Notes under the pieces: model-generated | The model's input: only the letters and a program-made list of their open reading frames with translations | Told to the model about the DNA's origin: nothing | Database searches by the model: none | In this document: one piece after another, positions 29,480 through 53,291 of the stretch | Layout: each line of letters begins with the position of its first letter | Numbering within the stretch: position 1 is the first letter of the stretch | IMG/VR virus record: IMGVR_UViG_3300044959_000303 | Coordinates: 32,001-96,000 of that record | Source: a virus | Strand: one strand, 5' to 3' | Length of the DNA: 64,000 nucleotides | Position numbers and translations under genes: made by a program

Positions 29480-30757
29480 TCACTTTTTTACCCATAATTC
29501 GTATCCTGCATCGAAAATGACATCTTTGCAATTCCCGAACTTTCTTCTTTTTCTCGTTACATAATCCGTATACCATTTTTTCGGGGGAATTTCGGCAAGT
29601 TTCACAAAATCATTTTGCCGAAGAAATTCATCCCCGGGATGAAATCGGTTATCGATGAGAAGTTTTTCCGATTTCATGTTCAGGAAGAAAAAATTTCGAT
29701 CCAGAAATCCTCGAATTGTTTTTTTCATTCGTTTTTTCGAAAAATTCCATTCGTCTTCGAATATTTGCAGAAGAAGAATGTTTCGATTTTTTGCCTCGAT
29801 ATATTTTTTGTAATGGTACAATTCGTCTTTCTGATTACAGCAGGAATGCCAGTACAAACCATGAAATTCGATTCCGATACCATATTCCGGAATCAGTATG
29901 TCTATTTCGTGTTTTTCGAGAATGTTTCTTTTTCTCGATTCTGTTTTCAGATTTCTTTCGGAAAGAAATTTACGAATTTCCACTTCGTACGAAGAAAAAT
30001 ATTTTTTTCTGAGATTGTATTCGACGGCTCTTCTTTGAACGGAACATATGTTGACATTGAAATATTTCGAAATTTCTCTTTCATTTCCATGAAATTTTTC
30101 ATATATTTCCGGAAAGAAATTTTCCCAATCATCGAGGTTCGAAATGTGTTTTTTTGCCGTATTGTATACACCATATTTTTTCAGATTTGTCGATTTTATT
30201 CTGTTTTTTATTTTTTCACTTTTTGTCGGATTGTCCACTCCATATTTTTCCAGAATTTTTTTTCTTGCCCGATTTCTTATTTCCTCGCTTTTCATTGGAT
30301 TGTCGATACCATATCGTTTCAACCATGTTTTTTTCTTTTTGTCATGAACATTTCTGTTTTGTGATGGATTTTCGACACCATATTTCTTCATCAATGTTTC
30401 TTTTATTCTGCTTTTTACAATATCCGAAGAAAAAGGATTGGCAACTCCGTATTTTTTCAAATTCGTGTTCTTTATTTTTTCTTTTATGATCTGTTTGCAT
30501 TCTTCACAGTTGTTCACGTTTTCCGAATGGTAACCTTTCGGCAAACTCAGGAATTTTCTTTTGTAACCATGCGAACAGTAGGGATTTTCTTCGAAAAGAT
30601 AGTAGTGAATTTTTTCGACGAAATCGACGTGTTCTGGAAATTTCCAGAAATCTTGAATATCTTTTCTGTACTCTTCCATATTTTTCATTTTTGTCACAAA
30701 AACATTGACTCGATATTTCGAATAAAATTCATGTATTTCCCGATAATATTTTTTCAT
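29480..30757 (-). CDS. putative homing endonuclease (KYGVxNP repeats + Vsr/DUF559-like PD-(D/E)XK domain)
   Basis: Repeated T.LKKYGV.NP units; S.YE.EI, EIDILIPEYGIGIEFHGLYWHS, LLQIFEDEW. Confidence 0.8.
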   Translation of the reverse strand: MKKYYREIHEFYSKYRVNVFVTKMKNMEEYRKDIQDFWKFPEHVDFVEKIHYYLFEENPYCSHGYKRKFLSLPKGYHSENVNNCEECKQIIKEKIKNTNLKKYGVANPFSSDIVKSRIKETLMKKYGVENPSQNRNVHDKKKKTWLKRYGIDNPMKSEEIRNRARKKILEKYGVDNPTKSEKIKNRIKSTNLKKYGVYNTAKKHISNLDDWENFFPEIYEKFHGNEREISKYFNVNICSVQRRAVEYNLRKKYFSSYEVEIRKFLSERNLKTESRKRNILEKHEIDILIPEYGIGIEFHGLYWHSCCNQKDELYHYKKYIEAKNRNILLLQIFEDEWNFSKKRMKKTIRGFLDRNFFFLNMKSEKLLIDNRFHPGDEFLRQNDFVKLAEIPPKKWYTDYVTRKRRKFGNCKDVIFDAGYELWVKK

Positions 30758-31023
30758 GTTTCTTCGATTTTTTTTCGATTCATTGTAAAAACAATTCGAA
30801 AAAACAACAATTTTTTCGAATTGTTTTTTTTTTCAGAATTTTCGAATCCACAATTCGTATCCTGCATCGAAAATCACATCTTTGCAATTCCCGAACTTTC
30901 TTCTTTTTCTCGTTACATAATCCGTATACCATTTTTTCGGGGGAATTTCGGCAAGTTTCACAAAATCATTTTGCCGAAGAAATTCATCCCCGGGATGAAA
31001 TCGGTTATCGATGAGAAGTTTTT
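29496..31023. repeat. 172-bp direct repeat pair (29496-29667 and 30852-31023), 1 mismatch
   Basis: Direct read; only aaatga vs aaatca differs. Confidence 0.9.
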
Positions 31024-32197
31024 TCGAGGTTGTATCGATCGTATCGATGAAGAAGAAATTTCGATAGAGAAACGCTTTCAATATTTCCCGAATTTTTTCC
31101 CGAGAAAAATTCCATTCGTCTTCGAATATTTGCAGAAGAACAATATTTCGATTTTTTGCTTCCATATATTTCCTGTAATGATAGAATTTGTCTTTTTTGT
31201 TGTTGAAAGAATGCCAGTACAATCCGTGAAACTCGATTCCGATACCATATTCCGGAATCAGTATGTCTATTTCGCTTCCATTCAGAATATTCCGGTTTCG
31301 AAATTCGAAACTTATTTCGTTTTCAGCGAGAAATTCACCAATTTCTTTTTCATAGGAAGAAAACGAAACAAATTTTTCCCTGAGACCACATTTCAAAGCT
31401 CTTTTGCGAATCGTGGAAATATCGACAGAGAAATATTTCGAAATTTCTCTTTCGTTACCATGAAATTTCTCGTAAATTTCCGAAAAAGAATTTTCCCAAT
31501 CATCGAGATTCGAAATGTGTTTTTTCACGTGATTGTCAGTTCCGTATTTCTGCAACCATGTTTTTTTTCTTTTTTCGAGAATTTCGATACAAGAAAAAGG
31601 ATGTTCCGTTCCGTATTTTTTCAACCATGTTTCTTTTCTTTTCTTTCGAAAGAATTCGAAACACGAAGGATTTTCGACTCCATATCTTTCTTTTGTCGTT
31701 TTCGTTTTCCTGTTTTTCACAGTGTCCAGAAGAGAAGGATTTTCGACTCCATATTTTTTTTGTAATGTTTCTCTTATTCTTTTTTTCACGATTTCCGAAG
31801 AAAATGGATTTTTACAACCGTATTTTCGAATATTCGTTTTTTCTTTTCTGTTTTTCACTTCCTGTGAAGAAGCCGGATTTTTGCAACCATATTTTTTCAA
31901 ATTTGTCCTTTCTCTTTTTTCTTCGATGATTTTCTTGCATTTTTCACATTTTTTGACCTGTTCCGACAGATAACCTTTTTTCAAACCATGAAAGGTTCTT
32001 TTGAAACCATGAAGACAATATGGATTTTCTTCGAACAGATAATAATGAACTTTTTCGACAAATTCGACATTTTCCGGAAATTTCCAGAAATTCTCGATTT
32101 CTTTTCTGAATTTTTCGTTGTTTTTTACTTTTCTTACAAAAATTGCGGTTTTACAATTCGAATATATGTCATGTATTTCTTCATGATATTTTTTCAT
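30833..32197 (-). CDS. putative homing endonuclease, tandem paralog of 29480..30757
   Basis: Same architecture and near-identical C-terminus. Confidence 0.8.
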   Translation of the reverse strand: MKKYHEEIHDIYSNCKTAIFVRKVKNNEKFRKEIENFWKFPENVEFVEKVHYYLFEENPYCLHGFKRTFHGLKKGYLSEQVKKCEKCKKIIEEKRERTNLKKYGCKNPASSQEVKNRKEKTNIRKYGCKNPFSSEIVKKRIRETLQKKYGVENPSLLDTVKNRKTKTTKERYGVENPSCFEFFRKKRKETWLKKYGTEHPFSCIEILEKRKKTWLQKYGTDNHVKKHISNLDDWENSFSEIYEKFHGNEREISKYFSVDISTIRKRALKCGLREKFVSFSSYEKEIGEFLAENEISFEFRNRNILNGSEIDILIPEYGIGIEFHGLYWHSFNNKKDKFYHYRKYMEAKNRNIVLLQIFEDEWNFSREKIREILKAFLYRNFFFIDTIDTTSKKLLIDNRFHPGDEFLRQNDFVKLAEIPPKKWYTDYVTRKRRKFGNCKDVIFDAGYELWIRKF

Positions 32198-34329: not shown

Positions 34330-35709
34330 ATGTCGGACAACAGATTCGATCTTTCGTATTTCTACGACGGTCAGATAAGAAGAATGAACATTCAGTTCAC
34401 TCGAATTTTTACAAATTTTCATTATTCGATTGGAAAAAATCGAAACGGCGAGCCTTTGTTGAGAAGAGTTCCAGCGAGATATGCTTCGACAAATCGGCAG
34501 GTTGCTTATGTTCTGAGAAACAATTCGGAAAACGTGATGTTGTCCGTACCAATGTTCACCGTATATCTGACAGGTCTGACATATGACAGAAATCGAGTGC
34601 AGGATCCTCTCTTTTCGGAAAAAATTCGCTTCAACGAAAAAAAATTCGATTCGATTTCCGGTGAGTTCATTCAAGAACCGGGACAAAGATTCACTGTCGA
34701 AAGATACATGCCAGTTCCTTACACGATGAGATGGAACGTGGATTTGTGGGTGAGCAACGAAAGCCAGAAAGAACAGTTGGTGGAACAGATAATAGTTCTT
34801 TTCAATCCTTCCATACAATTGCAATTCACCGAAAATCCTCTGGATTGGACAAGCCTGACAGAATTGACTCTGGAAGAAATCAACTGGAGTAACAATTCGA
34901 TTCCGATAGGAACGGGTGGTGAAATAGAAATCATAACCTTTACGTTTTCCGCTCCGGTATGGATAAATCCGCCAGCAATAGTCGAAAGACAGAAAATAAT
35001 AAAAACAATCATTACAAATGTTCTGGAAGCAGAAAAATACGAAGATTACGAAACAGAAGCAAGTTACGGTGTACAGTTCGACAAAATCGATCTGTTGAGC
35101 AGAACGGTGACAACTTTCAATGATCATACAATCGTGATAAATCAGAATGTCGTAAAATTGACAGGTCCGGGAGGAATCGAAGTCAATGAGAATGGCAAAC
35201 CGTTTTCTTGGAAAACAATCTTTTCGAAATGCGGAGGTTTTCGTCCCGGAATTACACAACTTGTGATCAATCCGACCGACAATATCGAAGACGAAGAACA
35301 TTTGATTTCTGGTATACTCGATTATGGTTCGAGTGAAAATGAACTTTTGTGGTTTCCAAATCCATCTACACTTCCATTGAATACCATTCGGGAAATAAAT
35401 GCCATCATAGATCCTGTGAAAACTTTTCCCGAAAGAGGTCTTTCGATTCCAGTGATCGGAACCAGATATCTTTTATTGTCAGATATAGGAAATTCCATTG
35501 CCTGGGGAAACATTCAGGCAAAAAAACATGAAATAATAGAATGGGACGGATCGAAATGGGTTGTCGCATTCAATGTAGAACTGGAGAAAGAAAAAATTCA
35601 TTATGTCAAGAATCTCTATGACAACAATCAATTGATATGGAATGGAAAGGAATGGAAATATCTTGTGAATGGATTGTATGAACAAGGTTTCTGGAGAATT
35701 ATTCTGTAA
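34330..35709 (+). CDS. tail terminator / sheath stabilizer (gp15-like)
   Basis: YFYDGQIRR, VERYMPVPY, QKEQLVEQI.VLFNPS, DWTSL, PVWINPPA motifs. Confidence 0.8.
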   Translation: MSDNRFDLSYFYDGQIRRMNIQFTRIFTNFHYSIGKNRNGEPLLRRVPARYASTNRQVAYVLRNNSENVMLSVPMFTVYLTGLTYDRNRVQDPLFSEKIRFNEKKFDSISGEFIQEPGQRFTVERYMPVPYTMRWNVDLWVSNESQKEQLVEQIIVLFNPSIQLQFTENPLDWTSLTELTLEEINWSNNSIPIGTGGEIEIITFTFSAPVWINPPAIVERQKIIKTIITNVLEAEKYEDYETEASYGVQFDKIDLLSRTVTTFNDHTIVINQNVVKLTGPGGIEVNENGKPFSWKTIFSKCGGFRPGITQLVINPTDNIEDEEHLISGILDYGSSENELLWFPNPSTLPLNTIREINAIIDPVKTFPERGLSIPVIGTRYLLLSDIGNSIAWGNIQAKKHEIIEWDGSKWVVAFNVELEKEKIHYVKNLYDNNQLIWNGKEWKYLVNGLYEQGFWRIIL

Positions 35710-35743
35710 AAAAGAAAAAAGCTGCCCGATACCGGGCAGCTTT
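35707..35743 (-). terminator. intrinsic terminator closing the hfa-like operon (possibly bidirectional)
   Basis: aaagctgcccg-atac-cgggcagcttt with long T-tract on the minus strand. Confidence 0.85.
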
Positions 35744-35783: not shown

Positions 35784-36377
35784 TCATGGTCGCACAACAG
35801 TGTTGTTCAGATTGATGTTGTTGCCAACGGCAGTAGCATTGACTTCGATGTTGCCACGAACGACGTTGTTACGAACTTCGGCAACGGCAGTGACATTGCT
35901 TCCGACAACAGCCTGACCAAGATTTCCAAGACGATTGTTGGTTCCATTCAGATTGACATTGTTACCGACAGATGTTGCTTCCACAGTAAGTGGACCATTG
36001 AGATTGCTGTTGGTAACCAAAGAAAATGACTGAACGTTGCTGAACAACACCGCCTGATTTACCGCATCGTTATTCAGAACTCTGACATTTTCACCAGCAA
36101 GATTGTTTCCAACAGCAGTCGAACGAACTTCCGGGTCGGAAGTATTCGAAACATTGGCAATGACAGCTGTTGCGGTTACATTGCTGTTTTTGACCAACTG
36201 ACCATTGATATCGACATTCACATTCACTTCGATGTTGTCGATCTCGTTCAAATAACGACAATCGATACTGGTGCCCGGGTGTGTCAGATCACAACTCGTG
36301 GCATGTCCAGTACTTGCAAAAGTCAGAAGACCAATTGCAGTTGCGATGGAAGCAAGATAACGAATACTGACAGTCAT
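35784..36377 (-). CDS. exported N/V-rich repeat protein, HfaD/curlin-like putative amyloid subunit
   Basis: Sec signal peptide (..FASTGHA), three Q-x4-SNV...(A/S)T(A/S)VGNN repeats, strong AAGGAGG RBS, downstream of the CsgG/HfaB gene. Confidence 0.72.
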   Translation of the reverse strand: MTVSIRYLASIATAIGLLTFASTGHATSCDLTHPGTSIDCRYLNEIDNIEVNVNVDINGQLVKNSNVTATAVIANVSNTSDPEVRSTAVGNNLAGENVRVLNNDAVNQAVLFSNVQSFSLVTNSNLNGPLTVEATSVGNNVNLNGTNNRLGNLGQAVVGSNVTAVAEVRNNVVRGNIEVNATAVGNNINLNNTVVRP

Positions 36378-36526
36378 GTTTTCCTCCTTTGGTTGTCAGT
36401 TCTGATTCATATTGGTAAATTGCATCAATTTACCAATACTTCCGGAGAATCCGGCATGACTTCCCGATAACCAGAAATCGGTAGGCCCAGTTTTTGAATT
36501 GGATTGGCAGCCAATATTCGAAAAAC

Positions 36527-37414
36527 TCATTGCATACCAAAAATTCGTACGCGATCACTTTCAATGTTTCTGTCCACATACCTTTTGTATCCTCCCGGAT
36601 ACAATTCGGTATTTTCGTATCTGTTCAGATAAATGATATCATTGTTGTTGCAATTCAACTCTATTCCATAGATATCGGCCAGCAACAACGCCACCGAAGT
36701 TTCTATCACATCTCTCACACCAACATTCAGAGGTTCCTGAACCTTGAAACCACTGTTCACATCGATGAGTACATTTCCGAAAAAGGAGAAAATACCACTT
36801 TTCACCTCTTTTCCGGTAATTCTTTTTTTCAGGGAAATTGCCTTTACGATTTCAGTGGTTCGAGTGTTGACAACTCTGAAATCTGCTGCAATTTCCATTA
36901 TATATTCTCTTGTTCCACCACCGATTCCGTTGATATAGAATTCAGAGCCACCAGAAATCAGATAATTGATTTCTGTAATACCACCTGCAATATAATAATC
37001 CGAACCCAGAACCTGTCCGGGAAAAATTTTTCTATATCCCGGTTCGTCATCACCAAGAACCTTGTTGTTCGAGAGATTGAGTTCGACATCGAATACGGAA
37101 CGATCGATTCTTTCCACAACTCGAACAACATTTGTTTTTGCCAAAGCAGTCGTAACCATATGTGAAATACCGGAAGAAACCTTTTTTCCATCTACCAGAG
37201 AAATTTTACCGCTGTAATCATCTACATTTCCGACGGAAATTGTAATCACACCTTTGTTGTTTTTCAAGGAATTCAGTGCTTTCGACTCGAAACATTTCAG
37301 ATAATTCTGATATTCCGTGACGTTTTGTTCTACCGGATATCTGTTCAAGGTAGTAACAGAACATCCAGACAGTAAACTTGCCAGAAAAATCGCAGAAAAA
37401 AGTTTCTTTTTCAT
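36527..37414 (-). CDS. hfaB: CsgG/HfaB-family outer-membrane lipoprotein secretion channel
   Basis: Lipobox LLSGC; ISVGNVDDYSGK, MVTTALAK, VVER, YRKIFPGQVLGSDYYIAGGITEINY, DFRVVNTRT.EIV, QEPL..GVR..IE motifs. Confidence 0.87.
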   Translation of the reverse strand: MKKKLFSAIFLASLLSGCSVTTLNRYPVEQNVTEYQNYLKCFESKALNSLKNNKGVITISVGNVDDYSGKISLVDGKKVSSGISHMVTTALAKTNVVRVVERIDRSVFDVELNLSNNKVLGDDEPGYRKIFPGQVLGSDYYIAGGITEINYLISGGSEFYINGIGGGTREYIMEIAADFRVVNTRTTEIVKAISLKKRITGKEVKSGIFSFFGNVLIDVNSGFKVQEPLNVGVRDVIETSVALLLADIYGIELNCNNNDIIYLNRYENTELYPGGYKRYVDRNIESDRVRIFGMQ

Positions 37415-37427
37415 GATATGATTTCCG

Positions 37428-37802
37428 TCAATAATTGATGCTTCCGTTCAATTCTGTTTCAATATTACTGTCTTCTATTTCTTGTGTCAAGTTGAAATTT
37501 GGATTGTTCGAAATCGTTCCGTTTCTATTGTGAAGAGAAATATTACTGTTTGTTATGTTTCCCACAGTACCGCCGTAAATTGAAATTCCACCATGAGGAA
37601 TATTGCTACCATTCGAATTTTTTTCGAACATGTTTCCTTTTTTCATTTCAATTGCCGTGGCTTGATTGACAAGATCTTCGAGTTTTCTTTCCCGAAAATT
37701 CCAAATGTCATTCTGTCCAAATTCTGCATGTGCAGAATAGTTGAAAATAATGATCGAAAAACCTGAAAACAATGTAATCAGATGTTTTCTCATGATTTTC
37801 AT
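37428..37802 (-). CDS. small exported N/G-rich protein, HfaA-like
   Basis: Signal peptide (..YSAHA), GGTVGN and terminal ELNGSINY; directly upstream of hfaB-like gene as in hfaABD. Confidence 0.5.
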   Translation of the reverse strand: MKIMRKHLITLFSGFSIIIFNYSAHAEFGQNDIWNFRERKLEDLVNQATAIEMKKGNMFEKNSNGSNIPHGGISIYGGTVGNITNSNISLHNRNGTISNNPNFNLTQEIEDSNIETELNGSINY

Positions 37803-37816
37803 TCCTCCATTGTTTT

Positions 37817-38452
37817 TTATCTTGGTCCTACACTGCTCATATCTGGTCCGATACTGTCAGTATTTGCTCCGATACTGCCATTGTCCGGTCCAATTCCATC
37901 ATTCACACCATCTTTACCGTTTTTTCCATCCTTACCATTTTCATTGTCTTTTCCATTGTTGTCATTTCTGGAATTGTTGGAATTGTCATTATACTCGTCA
38001 GTGAAACAAAGAGTTATCTTTTTTTCTTCATCTTTTTCACAGATCTGTTGATTCATGACAATTTCTTTTTCTTTTCTTCGAATTTCGATAAACACGAATT
38101 CTTTTTCAGAACTTTTTTTGGCAATTTCGATTCTTTTTCCACTTTTGTCAAAAGAAGATATATTTTCAGAAAAATAAGTGTTTTCCAATTTCTGTCTTTC
38201 CCTTTCTTTGTTCAAAATATGACTTTTGATGAAATTCAAGGAATAGCATTCCTGATTTGGTTCGGGTTCATCATATTCTTTCGGCCAAAGATAACATTCA
38301 TCTTTCGAATTTTCGATTTTGTGTTCTGTTTCCGAAAACATGAAAATTTTTTGATTGTCTAAAAATCTTTTGGATTCGAAATTGACATGATATACATAAG
38401 AGCAAGAAGTCGAAAGAAAAGAAGCAAGAACGACAAAAGAAAATTTTTTCAT
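37817..38452 (-). CDS. putative exported (lipo)protein with N/D/G low-complexity tail
   Basis: MKKFSFVVLASFLSTSC signal (imperfect lipobox); C-x10-C-FTDEYND motif; GKD/IGPD repeats. Confidence 0.65.
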   Translation of the reverse strand: MKKFSFVVLASFLSTSCSYVYHVNFESKRFLDNQKIFMFSETEHKIENSKDECYLWPKEYDEPEPNQECYSLNFIKSHILNKERERQKLENTYFSENISSFDKSGKRIEIAKKSSEKEFVFIEIRRKEKEIVMNQQICEKDEEKKITLCFTDEYNDNSNNSRNDNNGKDNENGKDGKNGKDGVNDGIGPDNGSIGANTDSIGPDMSSVGPR

Positions 38453-38491
38453 AAATTGTCTCCATTTTTTCGAAATTTCAAGTCAAATGAT

Positions 38492-38519
38492 ATTTTACAT
38501 ACGAAATCGAAATTGTCAA
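38492..38519 (-). promoter_or_regulatory. sigma70-type promoter of the hfa-like operon
   Basis: TTGACA-16 nt-TAAAAT, about 40 nt upstream of ATG 38452. Confidence 0.65.
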
Positions 38520-38578: not shown

Positions 38579-38618
38579 TAAAAAAAAAATAATCCGGTTG
38601 AACAGGTTCAACCGGATT
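38579..38618 (-). terminator. intrinsic terminator after the acidic repeat gene
   Basis: aatccggttgaa-cagg-ttcaaccggatt with long T-run on the minus strand. Confidence 0.8.
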
Positions 38619-38703: not shown

Positions 38704-39354
38704 TTAGCCATCCGAATCACCGACATCCGAATCACCGGCATCCGAATCACCGACATCCGAATCACCGACATCCGAATCACCGACATCCGAATCACCGACA
38801 TCCGAATCACCGACATCCGAATCACCGGCACCCGGTTCATCAGCAACCGGTTCATCAGCAACCGGTTCATCAGCAACCGGTTCATCAGCACCCGGTTTAT
38901 CAGCAACCGGTTCATCAGCACCCGGTTCATCAGCAACCGGTTCATCAGCACCCGGTTTATCAGCAACCGGTTCATCAGCACCCGGTTCATCAGCAACCGG
39001 TTCATCAGCACCCGGTTCATCAGCAACCGGTTCATCAGCACCCGGTTCATCAGCACCCGGTTCATCAGCAACCGGTTCATCAGCACCCGGTTCATCAGCA
39101 ACCGGTTCATCAGCACCCGGTTCATCAGCAACCGGATCGATTGGATCATCCACTCTCATGAAGTAGTTAGGTTGTTCACTATCATTATATTCATCGACAT
39201 AACAAATGGATTTTCCTCTGTCACTTTCATCATCGCAAACAAAAGTTTCCCGAACGCTGGAAACTCTTCTGTTTTCTGCGTTGACATCAGATGAATAAGA
39301 AAACACAGTCAAAAGAAGACCACTGACAATAAACATTGGTACTTTTTTCATCAC
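38704..39354 (-). CDS. exported highly acidic pentapeptide-repeat protein
   Basis: Signal peptide (..SSDVNA), C-x10-C-YVDEYND, then 20 x P(V/G)AD(E/K) and 8 x GDSD(V/A/G); GG-rich RBS upstream of GTG. Confidence 0.8.
38707..39135. repeat. two adjacent 15-bp tandem arrays (coding)
   Basis: catccgaatcaccga-type x8 and ccggttcatcagcaa/c-type x20. Confidence 0.95.
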
Positions 39355-39402: not shown

Positions 39403-40440
39403 TCATATTAAATCCAAAAAACAGACTTTGTCAACAAAATTTTTCGACCTTTTTTTCGAATTTCTTCGTATATCTTCGTTTACCATCATTCGAACAAGTT
39501 CGTCGAAAGAAACTTTTGGCGACCAACCAAGTTTTTCTTTGGCTTTCTTCGGATTGCCTCTCAGATATGGTACTTCCGCGGGACGCATATGAAGAGGATT
39601 GATTTTGACATAGGAAACATAATCTTCCCGGCGTTTTGTCAAACCGGAAAACAAAAAGGCTTTTTCCAGAAATTCACGTAAACTGTGAGACTCTCCGGTC
39701 GCAATAACGTAATCTTCCGGTGTCGATTGCTGTAACATCAACCACATTGCTTCGACAAAATCCCCCGCATATCCCCAATCTCGATAAACATCGAGATTTC
39801 CAAGTTCGATGAATTTCTGTTCTCCAGAAATTATTCTTGCAATTCCGTTTGTGATTTTTCTCGTGACAAATTCTTTTCCTCGAAGTGGAGATTCATGATT
39901 CATGAGTATTCCGGAACAGGCGAAAATACCATAAGATTCCCTGTAGTTCACCGTTATCCAATGAGCTGCCAGCTTCGAAACTCCATATGGCGAACGGGGA
40001 TGAAAAGGAGTATTTTCGTCTTGAGTCTTGTTACTGTTCAGAGAAATACCGAACATTTCCGATGTGGATGCCTGATAGAATCTGCTTTTCGGACTATTGG
40101 AAATTATCGCTTCCAGAATGTTCAATGCTCCCATGAAATTCGTTTCCAAAGTATACTTTGGATTTTCCCACGATATTCCGACAAAGGATTGTGCAGCCAG
40201 ATTGTAAACTTCATTTGGTTTGATCTGTTTCATGATTTTCATGATGGAAATTTCGTCGGTAACATCACCAACAAGATATTCGATTTCGTTTGTTATACCG
40301 AAATAATCCAGATTTTCGAAATTCGGGTTACTTTTTCTTCTTACCAGACCGTAAATTCTGTAATCTTTTTCCAGAAGAAATTTCGAAAGATAAGCGCCAT
40401 CCTGACCAAGAATTCCGGTAATGAAAGCTGTTCTTTTCAC
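39403..40440 (-). CDS. gmd: GDP-mannose 4,6-dehydratase
   Basis: ITGILGQDGAYL, YNLAAQSFV, YQASTSEMFG, PRSPYGVSK, NHESPLRG.EFVTRKIT, LGNLD..RDWGYA. Confidence 0.95.
   Translation of the reverse strand: MKRTAFITGILGQDGAYLSKFLLEKDYRIYGLVRRKSNPNFENLDYFGITNEIEYLVGDVTDEISIMKIMKQIKPNEVYNLAAQSFVGISWENPKYTLETNFMGALNILEAIISNSPKSRFYQASTSEMFGISLNSNKTQDENTPFHPRSPYGVSKLAAHWITVNYRESYGIFACSGILMNHESPLRGKEFVTRKITNGIARIISGEQKFIELGNLDVYRDWGYAGDFVEAMWLMLQQSTPEDYVIATGESHSLREFLEKAFLFSGLTKRREDYVSYVKINPLHMRPAEVPYLRGNPKKAKEKLGWSPKVSFDELVRMMVNEDIRRNSKKRSKNFVDKVCFLDLI
39405..39434 (-). promoter_or_regulatory. possible sigma70-type promoter for 38704..39354
   Basis: TTGACA-18 nt-TAATAT within the end of gmd. Confidence 0.45.

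Positions 40441-53215: not shown

Positions 53216-53291
<76 letters not shown>

Follow-up and report, generated by a model that had tools for sequence, protein, structure and literature searches.

In Caulobacter, HfaA and HfaD need HfaB to reach the cell surface, and they form multimers that resist sodium dodecyl sulphate (SDS) (PMC6707917; bioRxiv 10.1101/2022.07.20.500906). So far, discussion of type VIII secretion in bacteriophages has been confined to the curli-type modules of ocean phages. Pelagiphages carry complete CsgG-CsgF-CsgA/B modules, for which there is expression evidence (PMC9599517), and CsgGF is found in pelagimyophages and Methylophage Melnitz (PMC7029224, PMC9004378); the purpose of such modules is debated, the candidates being defence against superinfection, 'sibling capture', uptake and the timing of lysis. 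Here we analyse a four-gene cassette within 64,000 nucleotides of viral DNA (the window; bases 32001-96000 of the 107-kb IMG/VR record IMGVR_UViG_3300044959_000303, a contig from an uncultured virus). We read it, with a probability of about 0.6, as an accessory ('moron') cassette of a jumbo myophage of low guanine-plus-cytosine (GC) content, encoding an Hfa-type type VIII secretion system that exports a β-repeat cargo.

The central component of the cassette is the product of its third gene, a protein of 295 amino acids (aa). It matches Pfam CsgG (PF03783) over residues 50-248 with 68.2 bits, against a gathering cutoff of 20.8, and scores much higher with the NCBIfam model for HfaB (NF037935) than with that for CsgG (206.7 versus 48.9 bits). 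On the same HfaB model Caulobacter HfaB reaches 338.7 bits, and phage and other proteobacterial homologues reach 207-239. A PHROGs family for the protein already exists (phrog_20175, 152 bits), and a phmmer search of the PDB aligned residues 44-247 with CsgG chains (E 6e-11). The AlphaFold2 (AF2) model, built on a 22-sequence alignment (predicted local distance difference test score, pLDDT, 65), contains two long β-hairpins (strands 140-161/164-183 and 188-208/217-224). Foldseek returned 25 matches to this model at E ≤ 0.001; every match listed down to rank 10 was a CsgG chain with a probability of 1.0, at template-modelling (TM) scores of only 0.25-0.39. The two motifs quoted for the pore in the preliminary description of this DNA, LSGC and GQVLGSDYYIAGGITEINY, are both found in the protein, the former at residues 15-18, and Cys18 is nearly invariant across the 22-sequence alignment. 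On these profiles and the model, the 295-aa protein is a CsgG-fold lipoprotein of the HfaB-like type and a predicted channel.

Rooting the tree on E. coli CsgG places the 295-aa protein on a long branch together with P0002, its sole close relative (66% identical); this branch falls in an unresolved set of 11 rows with other phage HfaBs and Caulobacteraceae HfaB. A branch with a support of 98 in the Shimodaira-Hasegawa-like approximate likelihood ratio test (SH-aLRT) parts this set from 48 proteobacterial homologues, the majority of which are apparently fused to an OmpA-like domain, and the phage protein is not nested in any bacterial clade. The earlier placement of the pore nearer to HfaB than to curli CsgG thus holds, both by model score and in the tree. 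The protein ends in a 45-aa tail (residues 251-295; YPGG-x-KRY ... RVRIFG) that is kept only in P0002 and is absent from all other HfaB-like proteins. In bacterial homologues an OmpA-like domain takes up the position of this tail, which is modelled with low confidence.

The last gene encodes the cargo candidate, a 197-aa protein in which a signal peptide and a Cys-x10-Cys head are followed by three repeats of ~47 aa with the pattern Q-x-V-x2-SNV...[AS]T[AS]VGNN; the S/ATAVGNN element noted earlier does occur three times. Its Pfam assignment was taken over from the representative of its 90% cluster (P0003, 95% identical), which bears a precomputed match to PF27277, that is, HfaD. Three more relatives at 45-62% identity (P0004-P0006) bear the same family. 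Searched directly against Pfam, the 197-aa protein gave no PF27277 match, the copy used being probably without that model. Comparison by hhalign of the five-member cargo family with 15 Caulobacteraceae HfaD sequences gave 87.8% (E 3.3e-6), with further registers at 74% and 60%, and the motif [ST]A[VI]GN[NS] is repeated on both sides of the alignment. A profile of the five cargo relatives matched the genes downstream of hfaB in the phages CcrColossus and CcrPW and in a 229-kb viral contig (L004) at E 1e-5 to 1e-7, and an iterated profile search from the cargo family reached genuine HfaD. Because of the Pfam HfaD family in the cluster and its relatives, the profile matches and the hhalign alignment to HfaD, we classify the 197-aa protein by sequence as a short HfaD-family member, in keeping with the repeat protein of hfaD type that had been proposed for this position. 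As a separate matter, a likeness between the cargo model and fibrils of FapC or CsgA (Foldseek to FapC, E 4e-4) was considered and rejected, given TM scores of 0.07-0.19 (0.15-0.19 for FapC) and a pLDDT of 56.

The same synteny was found in other jumbo phages. By tblastn, the pore was found in CcrColossus (annotated 'CsgG-like'), in CcrPW ('transcription activator hfaB') and in five Brevundimonas jumbo phages (Kabachok, Marchewka, Domovoi, Papperlapapp and Bambus). CcrColossus (gp241-243) and Kabachok, examined closely, encode a secreted protein of ~165 aa, the pore, and then a protein of 310-355 aa that matches the HfaD model. The phage pores score 207-235 bits on the HfaB model, and the genes downstream match the HfaD model at E 1e-5 to 1e-7. 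CcrPW has the same ORF (open reading frame) layout, its flanking ORFs being tied to the partner and HfaD families by purpose-built profiles. GenBank labels the partner genes of these phages 'hypothetical'. The major capsid protein of the 229-kb contig shares 43-49% identity with that of the window, and this contig carries partner, HfaB and HfaD-like genes, arranged alike, at another position in its genome. The pore relative P0002 (66% identical) and the cargo relative P0004 (62% identical) each lie on a contig of 52,823 bp, most likely one and the same; P0006 and P0003 lie on contigs of 128 kb and 8 kb. A search of viral and metagenome contigs for close relatives of the locus, with the pore and the cargo as queries (single proteins and alignments), retrieved only the 229-kb contig, CcrColossus and CcrPW. 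Our literature search found no discussion of phage hfa genes. The preliminary description knew of no hfaABD-type operon with candidate fibre subunits in a phage; that statement falls, given the triads in CcrColossus, CcrPW and the Brevundimonas phages and the curli modules with CsgA/B in pelagiphages (PMC9599517). We see in the cassette an Hfa-type form of phage type VIII secretion that has precedents in other phages.

These comparisons bear on the possibility that the HfaB-like pore itself alters outer-membrane permeability, for lysis timing or uptake, and that its secreted neighbours are not its cargo. This idea has been published for the phage CsgG pores of Melnitz and pelagimyophage CsgGF (PMC9004378), and the 124- and 211-aa proteins of the cassette have no demonstrable link to the pore. 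An HfaD-family gene, however, accompanies the pore in every phage lineage examined, the pore gene does not adjoin lysis genes, and the pelagiphage modules were later shown to hold fibre genes too (PMC9599517). We regard a pore acting on its own as quite improbable, and prefer a channel that serves an HfaD-family cargo.

The cassette consists of four co-oriented minus-strand genes in the structural-gene block of a low-GC (36%) T4-like myophage. The phage is of jumbo size, because the 107-kb record is estimated to be only 28% complete. On one side of the cassette lies a gene for a gp15-type tail-sheath stabiliser, whose product is nearest to homologues of Sinorhizobium phage Phosso, Agrobacterium phage Atu_ph07 and the PA5oct group (36-37% identity); on the other side lie gmd and the gene for a tail sheath of 1183 aa. 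The major head protein gene is 7 kb away. Could the cassette be a passenger or an artefact, that is, host DNA picked up recently that does nothing for the phage, or else a chimera made in assembly? The contig is uncultured and incomplete, and no close related locus was retrieved from viral and metagenome contigs. Against this, the ORFs are all intact, the four genes have a GC content of 0.32-0.45 and a GC content at third codon positions (GC3) of 0.29-0.42, in line with the phage's own genes, relatives of pore and cargo (45-95% identity) are found on further large, phage-sized contigs, and the tree offers no bacterial donor clade that could be named. Because phage structural genes flank the cassette on both sides and its GC and GC3 fit those of phage genes, an assembly chimera with host DNA is very unlikely; the passenger-or-artefact explanation as a whole is already largely refuted and hardly credible, and the cassette is taken as phage DNA.

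The features of the cassette and its surroundings are collected in Table 1.

Table 1. Features of the Hfa-type cassette and of neighbouring DNA, in window positions.
Feature	Positions	Strand	Basis or remark
Sigma70-like promoter TTGACA-16-TAAAAT	38492..38519	-	11/12 consensus positions; ~40 nt (nucleotides) upstream of first gene
211-aa putative lipoprotein, D/G/N/K-rich tail	37817..38452	-	ORF and N-terminus
124-aa secreted N/G-rich ORFan at hfaA position; candidate small partner or cargo	37428..37802	-	ORF, signal peptide
295-aa HfaB-like, CsgG-fold outer-membrane lipoprotein (putative channel)	36527..37414	-	Pfam, NCBIfam, PHROGs, PDB, AF2/Foldseek
45-aa C-terminal tail of the 295-aa protein	36527..36661	-
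149-nt structured spacer ending in AAGGAGG ribosome-binding site	36378..36526	-	RNA fold
197-aa secreted HfaD-family repeat protein; candidate exported fibre/anchor subunit	35784..36377	-	cluster Pfam, hhalign
Intrinsic terminator closing cassette	35708..35743	-	stem 35743-35718, 11 pairs (7 G-C), then T-run
gp15-type tail-sheath stabiliser gene	34330..35709		Pfam and PHROGs
Terminator of the acidic-repeat gene	38618..38591
Secreted, very acidic 216-aa protein	38704..39354	-	two abutting 15-bp tandem arrays
Sigma70-like promoter of the acidic-repeat gene	39434		11/12 consensus positions
GDP-mannose 4,6-dehydratase (gmd), intact	39403..40440	-
Homing/HNH endonuclease gene	29480..30757	-	phrog_3339, E 4e-44
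Homing/HNH endonuclease gene	30833..32197	-	phrog_3339, E 3e-48
tRNA-Lys (CTT)	53216..53291	-	sole tRNA of the window

The four ORFs lie where they had first been placed, and the promoter and downstream terminator described with them are both true consensus matches. Promoter-like sites overall occur in the region at chance frequency (12 found versus 11.7 expected from shuffles). Matches at 11 of 12 positions number only two in the window (38519 and 39434), and each heads one of the two transcription units of the island formed by the cassette and the acidic-repeat gene; a second terminator ends the upstream unit and divides the two. T4-type late promoters (TATAAATA) were looked for near the island, and none was found. 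The first three genes are separated by gaps of 13-14 nt, and 149 nt precede the last. Compared across the cassette, the ribosome-binding site is strongest (AAGGAGG) at the cargo gene and weakest at the pore gene, which fits an arrangement of few channels serving many subunits. The 149-nt spacer folds as RNA with -43.3 kcal/mol (z-score -3.45), a value that none of 200 shuffles equals. In the outer helix of this fold the 5′ end of the spacer pairs with part of the Shine-Dalgarno region of the cargo gene, so that the fold may control translation or processing.

All four products begin with a basic and then hydrophobic N-terminus. The lipobox is a classic L-S-G-C in the 295-aa protein and a looser L-S-T-S-C in the 211-aa protein, and the signals of the 124- and 197-aa proteins end in AHA/GHA cleavage-type sequences. 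Read in this way from the sequence, the export signals that had been ascribed to all four products are borne out.

The 124-aa protein occupies the hfaA position, with a signal peptide and a stop codon 13 nt before the start of the pore gene. Searches of 5.8 and of 1.84 billion proteins yielded no relatives of it, save one spurious low-complexity match in an insect. In the small secreted partners encoded upstream of HfaB-like genes, the mature N-terminus carries the family motif G-E-N-x2-W-Q-F-x-T ... IE-x-KK-G-x-Y, and by eye a similar motif, G-x-N-x2-W-x-F ... IE-x-KK-G-x-[FY], follows the signal peptide of the 124-aa protein. Against this small-partner family hhalign gave a weak match (34%, E 4e-4), and the mature protein scored 19, versus 10.7 ± 2.1 for shuffles (1 of 100 shuffles as high). 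A HMMER search of the phage's own ORFs with the motif did not single out the 124-aa protein. By sequence, the 124-aa protein weakly resembles the small secreted partners whose genes precede those of HfaB-like proteins in many Proteobacteria and in the Caulobacter phages. The proteins of the Caulobacter phages match that family at 98.4% in hhalign; the family itself matches canonical HfaA at 33%. For the 211-aa protein no family was found in Pfam, NCBIfam or PHROGs, and BLASTP of the pore's neighbour proteins, the 211-aa protein among them, against all ORFs of 62 loci gave no match.

The N-terminal 22 residues of CsgA target it to CsgG, and we propose a parallel for the small-partner motif. On this broader idea, Hfa-type cassettes would be a recurrent module, acquired separately by unrelated jumbo lineages (low-GC T4-like myophages and Dolichocephalovirinae siphophages), that builds a phage-specified fibre, and the N-terminal motif of the small partner, faint in the 124-aa ORFan, would be a signal for targeting to the HfaB channel. 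We offer this tentatively, at odds well below even.

How might the cassette work? Host RNA polymerase would read it from the sigma70-like promoter, and Sec, to judge from the N-termini, would carry all four products across the inner membrane. The 295-aa protein would then serve as an outer-membrane channel; its fold and family are established here, and its oligomerization and channel activity would follow those of CsgG and HfaB. This channel would probably export the 197-aa HfaD-family protein, and perhaps also the 124-aa protein; the contrast in ribosome-binding sites and the structured spacer before the cargo gene are both in keeping with this. By the example of Caulobacter, the exported proteins may assemble on the surface of the infected cell into a stable β-rich polymer or anchor, and by that analogy infected cells are likely to display a phage-made surface fibre. 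As to what the phage gains, our leading guesses are that the polymer coats the cell and prevents superinfection, or that a fibre holds infected cells in place or in aggregates close to new hosts.

Several observations weigh against this reading. The 295-aa protein does not reach the HfaB equivalog cutoff of 300 bits, and its constriction-loop region is unlike that of CsgG in the alignment. With the NCBIfam HfaD model (NF037936) the 197-aa protein scores 13.3 bits (E 0.04), below the cutoff of 100. At half the length of canonical HfaD, whose open frames span 412-489 aa in a tally over 31 genomes (one of them, G032, unpublished and contributing no sequence), it has less than the full-length architecture; its AF2 model is all-β and of low confidence (pLDDT 56). 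The identification of the 124-aa protein as HfaA, made in the preliminary description, stays unproven: the NCBIfam HfaA model (NF037934; Pfam PF27294), on which Caulobacter HfaA scores 50.6 bits, gave no match at E ≤ 1, hhalign against Caulobacter-type HfaA gave a probability of 0.1%, and the atlas feature score for HfaA (0.82) lay within the noise range; by sequence, the protein cannot be tied to HfaA. Evidence for the promoter consists of the consensus match. Expression, export, polymerization, timing and benefit are inferred here.

In a further explanation, the cassette would supplement or hijack a polysaccharide adhesin of the host: the HfaB/HfaD-like proteins would tether host (or gmd-modified) polysaccharide as a true holdfast-type anchor, so that the infected cell stays stuck to a surface or particle until lysis. 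The Hfa family does anchor polysaccharide in Caulobacter, the intact GDP-mannose 4,6-dehydratase gene lies 1 kb upstream on the same strand, and holdfast-making Caulobacter and Brevundimonas are the hosts of those cultured phages that carry the triad. The gmd gene, however, is a unit apart, set off by its own terminator and a further gene, and a search of the 107-kb fragment found neither a glycosyltransferase nor any other sugar-nucleotide enzyme. HfaB-like systems are, moreover, widespread outside Caulobacterales, where no holdfast is known. On balance a polysaccharide anchor appears unlikely, and an exported protein fibre built from the HfaD-family cargo remains our preferred reading.

The gmd gene adjoins the island and is the sole Epimerase-family gene on the 107-kb record; a search of that record for GT2 or GT4 glycosyltransferases found none. 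Between gmd and the cassette, the tandem arrays of the acidic 216-aa protein hold 20.5 copies at 92% matches and 7.9 copies at 98% matches, and its gene has its own promoter and terminator (Table 1). A C-x10-C-[YF]-x-DEYND stretch is common to this protein and the 211-aa lipoprotein. Elsewhere, the two homing/HNH endonuclease genes are paralogous and lie just downstream of the major head gene.

HfaB-like genes occur widely among Alpha-, Beta- and Gammaproteobacteria that do not belong to Caulobacterales (loci L007-L062). The bacterial proteins are mostly 440-480 aa long, and a C-terminal OmpA/Pal-like domain was demonstrated in at least one (L012). In these loci a conserved gene for a secreted protein of ~180-250 aa always precedes the HfaB-like gene, and one for a protein of 400 aa or >1200 aa often follows. 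They look like an uncharacterised Hfa-like system, contrary to the stated restriction of HfaA-type partners to Caulobacterales. In two Caulobacter metagenome-assembled genomes we also noted a 200-234-aa HfaD-like paralogue (L034:3707-4411 and L066:1351-1956; NCBIfam HfaD, E 2.5e-5). In L034 the gene for this paralogue immediately precedes hfaA, the full-length hfaD being on another contig.

The cassette shows the holdfast-anchor branch of the type VIII machinery, with its own candidate cargo, in a different kind of phage from those discussed so far, and HfaB-like channels with small-partner genes reach far beyond Caulobacterales, the channels of that wider group often being joined to an OmpA-like domain. 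The same triad stands unannotated in cultured Caulobacter and Brevundimonas phages, and because those phages have genetically tractable hosts, its purpose is directly testable there. To point to these phages is the main value of the cassette.

Among described systems, E. coli CsgG/CsgA shares with the cassette the fold, the lipoprotein nature of the pore and a short-repeat, N/G/Q-rich β cargo. CsgG is, however, only about 20-24% identical to the window pore, its constriction-loop residues are not conserved, and the cassette is without CsgE, CsgF or CsgC. The modules of pelagiphages and Melnitz likewise combine a phage CsgG-family channel with a repeat-protein cargo of their own, as the cassette does with its candidate cargo, and would provide the infected cell with a new surface structure; the published guesses on their role are the same as ours for the cassette (PMC9599517, PMC9004378, PMC7029224). 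Those modules carry CsgG, CsgF, CsgA/B, FecR, adenylate cyclase and histidine kinase, whereas the window pore belongs to the HfaB branch and its cargo is HfaD-type rather than curlin-type. Searches of the five island proteins against Pfam and NCBIfam found no CsgF, CsgE, CsgA/B, FecR, cyclase or kinase family, and tblastn of the pore against pelagiphages and Melnitz gave no match at E 1e-5.

Closer are the triads of Dolichocephalovirinae, also jumbo phages, which share the gene order and the three roles with the cassette. They are unrelated siphophages of 62-65% GC, in contrast to the T4-like myophage of the window. Their pores are only 37-45% identical to the window pore, their cargo is 310-355 aa long rather than 197, and their small partner belongs firmly to the bacterial upstream family (98% by hhalign), that of the window only weakly. 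Compared with Caulobacter crescentus HfaA-HfaB-HfaD (with HfaE), the phage pore falls under the equivalog cutoff and has a unique 45-aa tail, the cargo has 197 aa as against about 415-450 in HfaD, and the small protein is not HfaA by any hidden Markov model (HMM). The phage cassette also has an extra leading lipoprotein and a GC content of 36%, and no holdfast synthesis genes were seen. Yet the two have in common a small secreted protein gene directly upstream of the pore gene, an HfaB-type CsgG-fold lipoprotein and, following it, a secreted HfaD-repeat protein.

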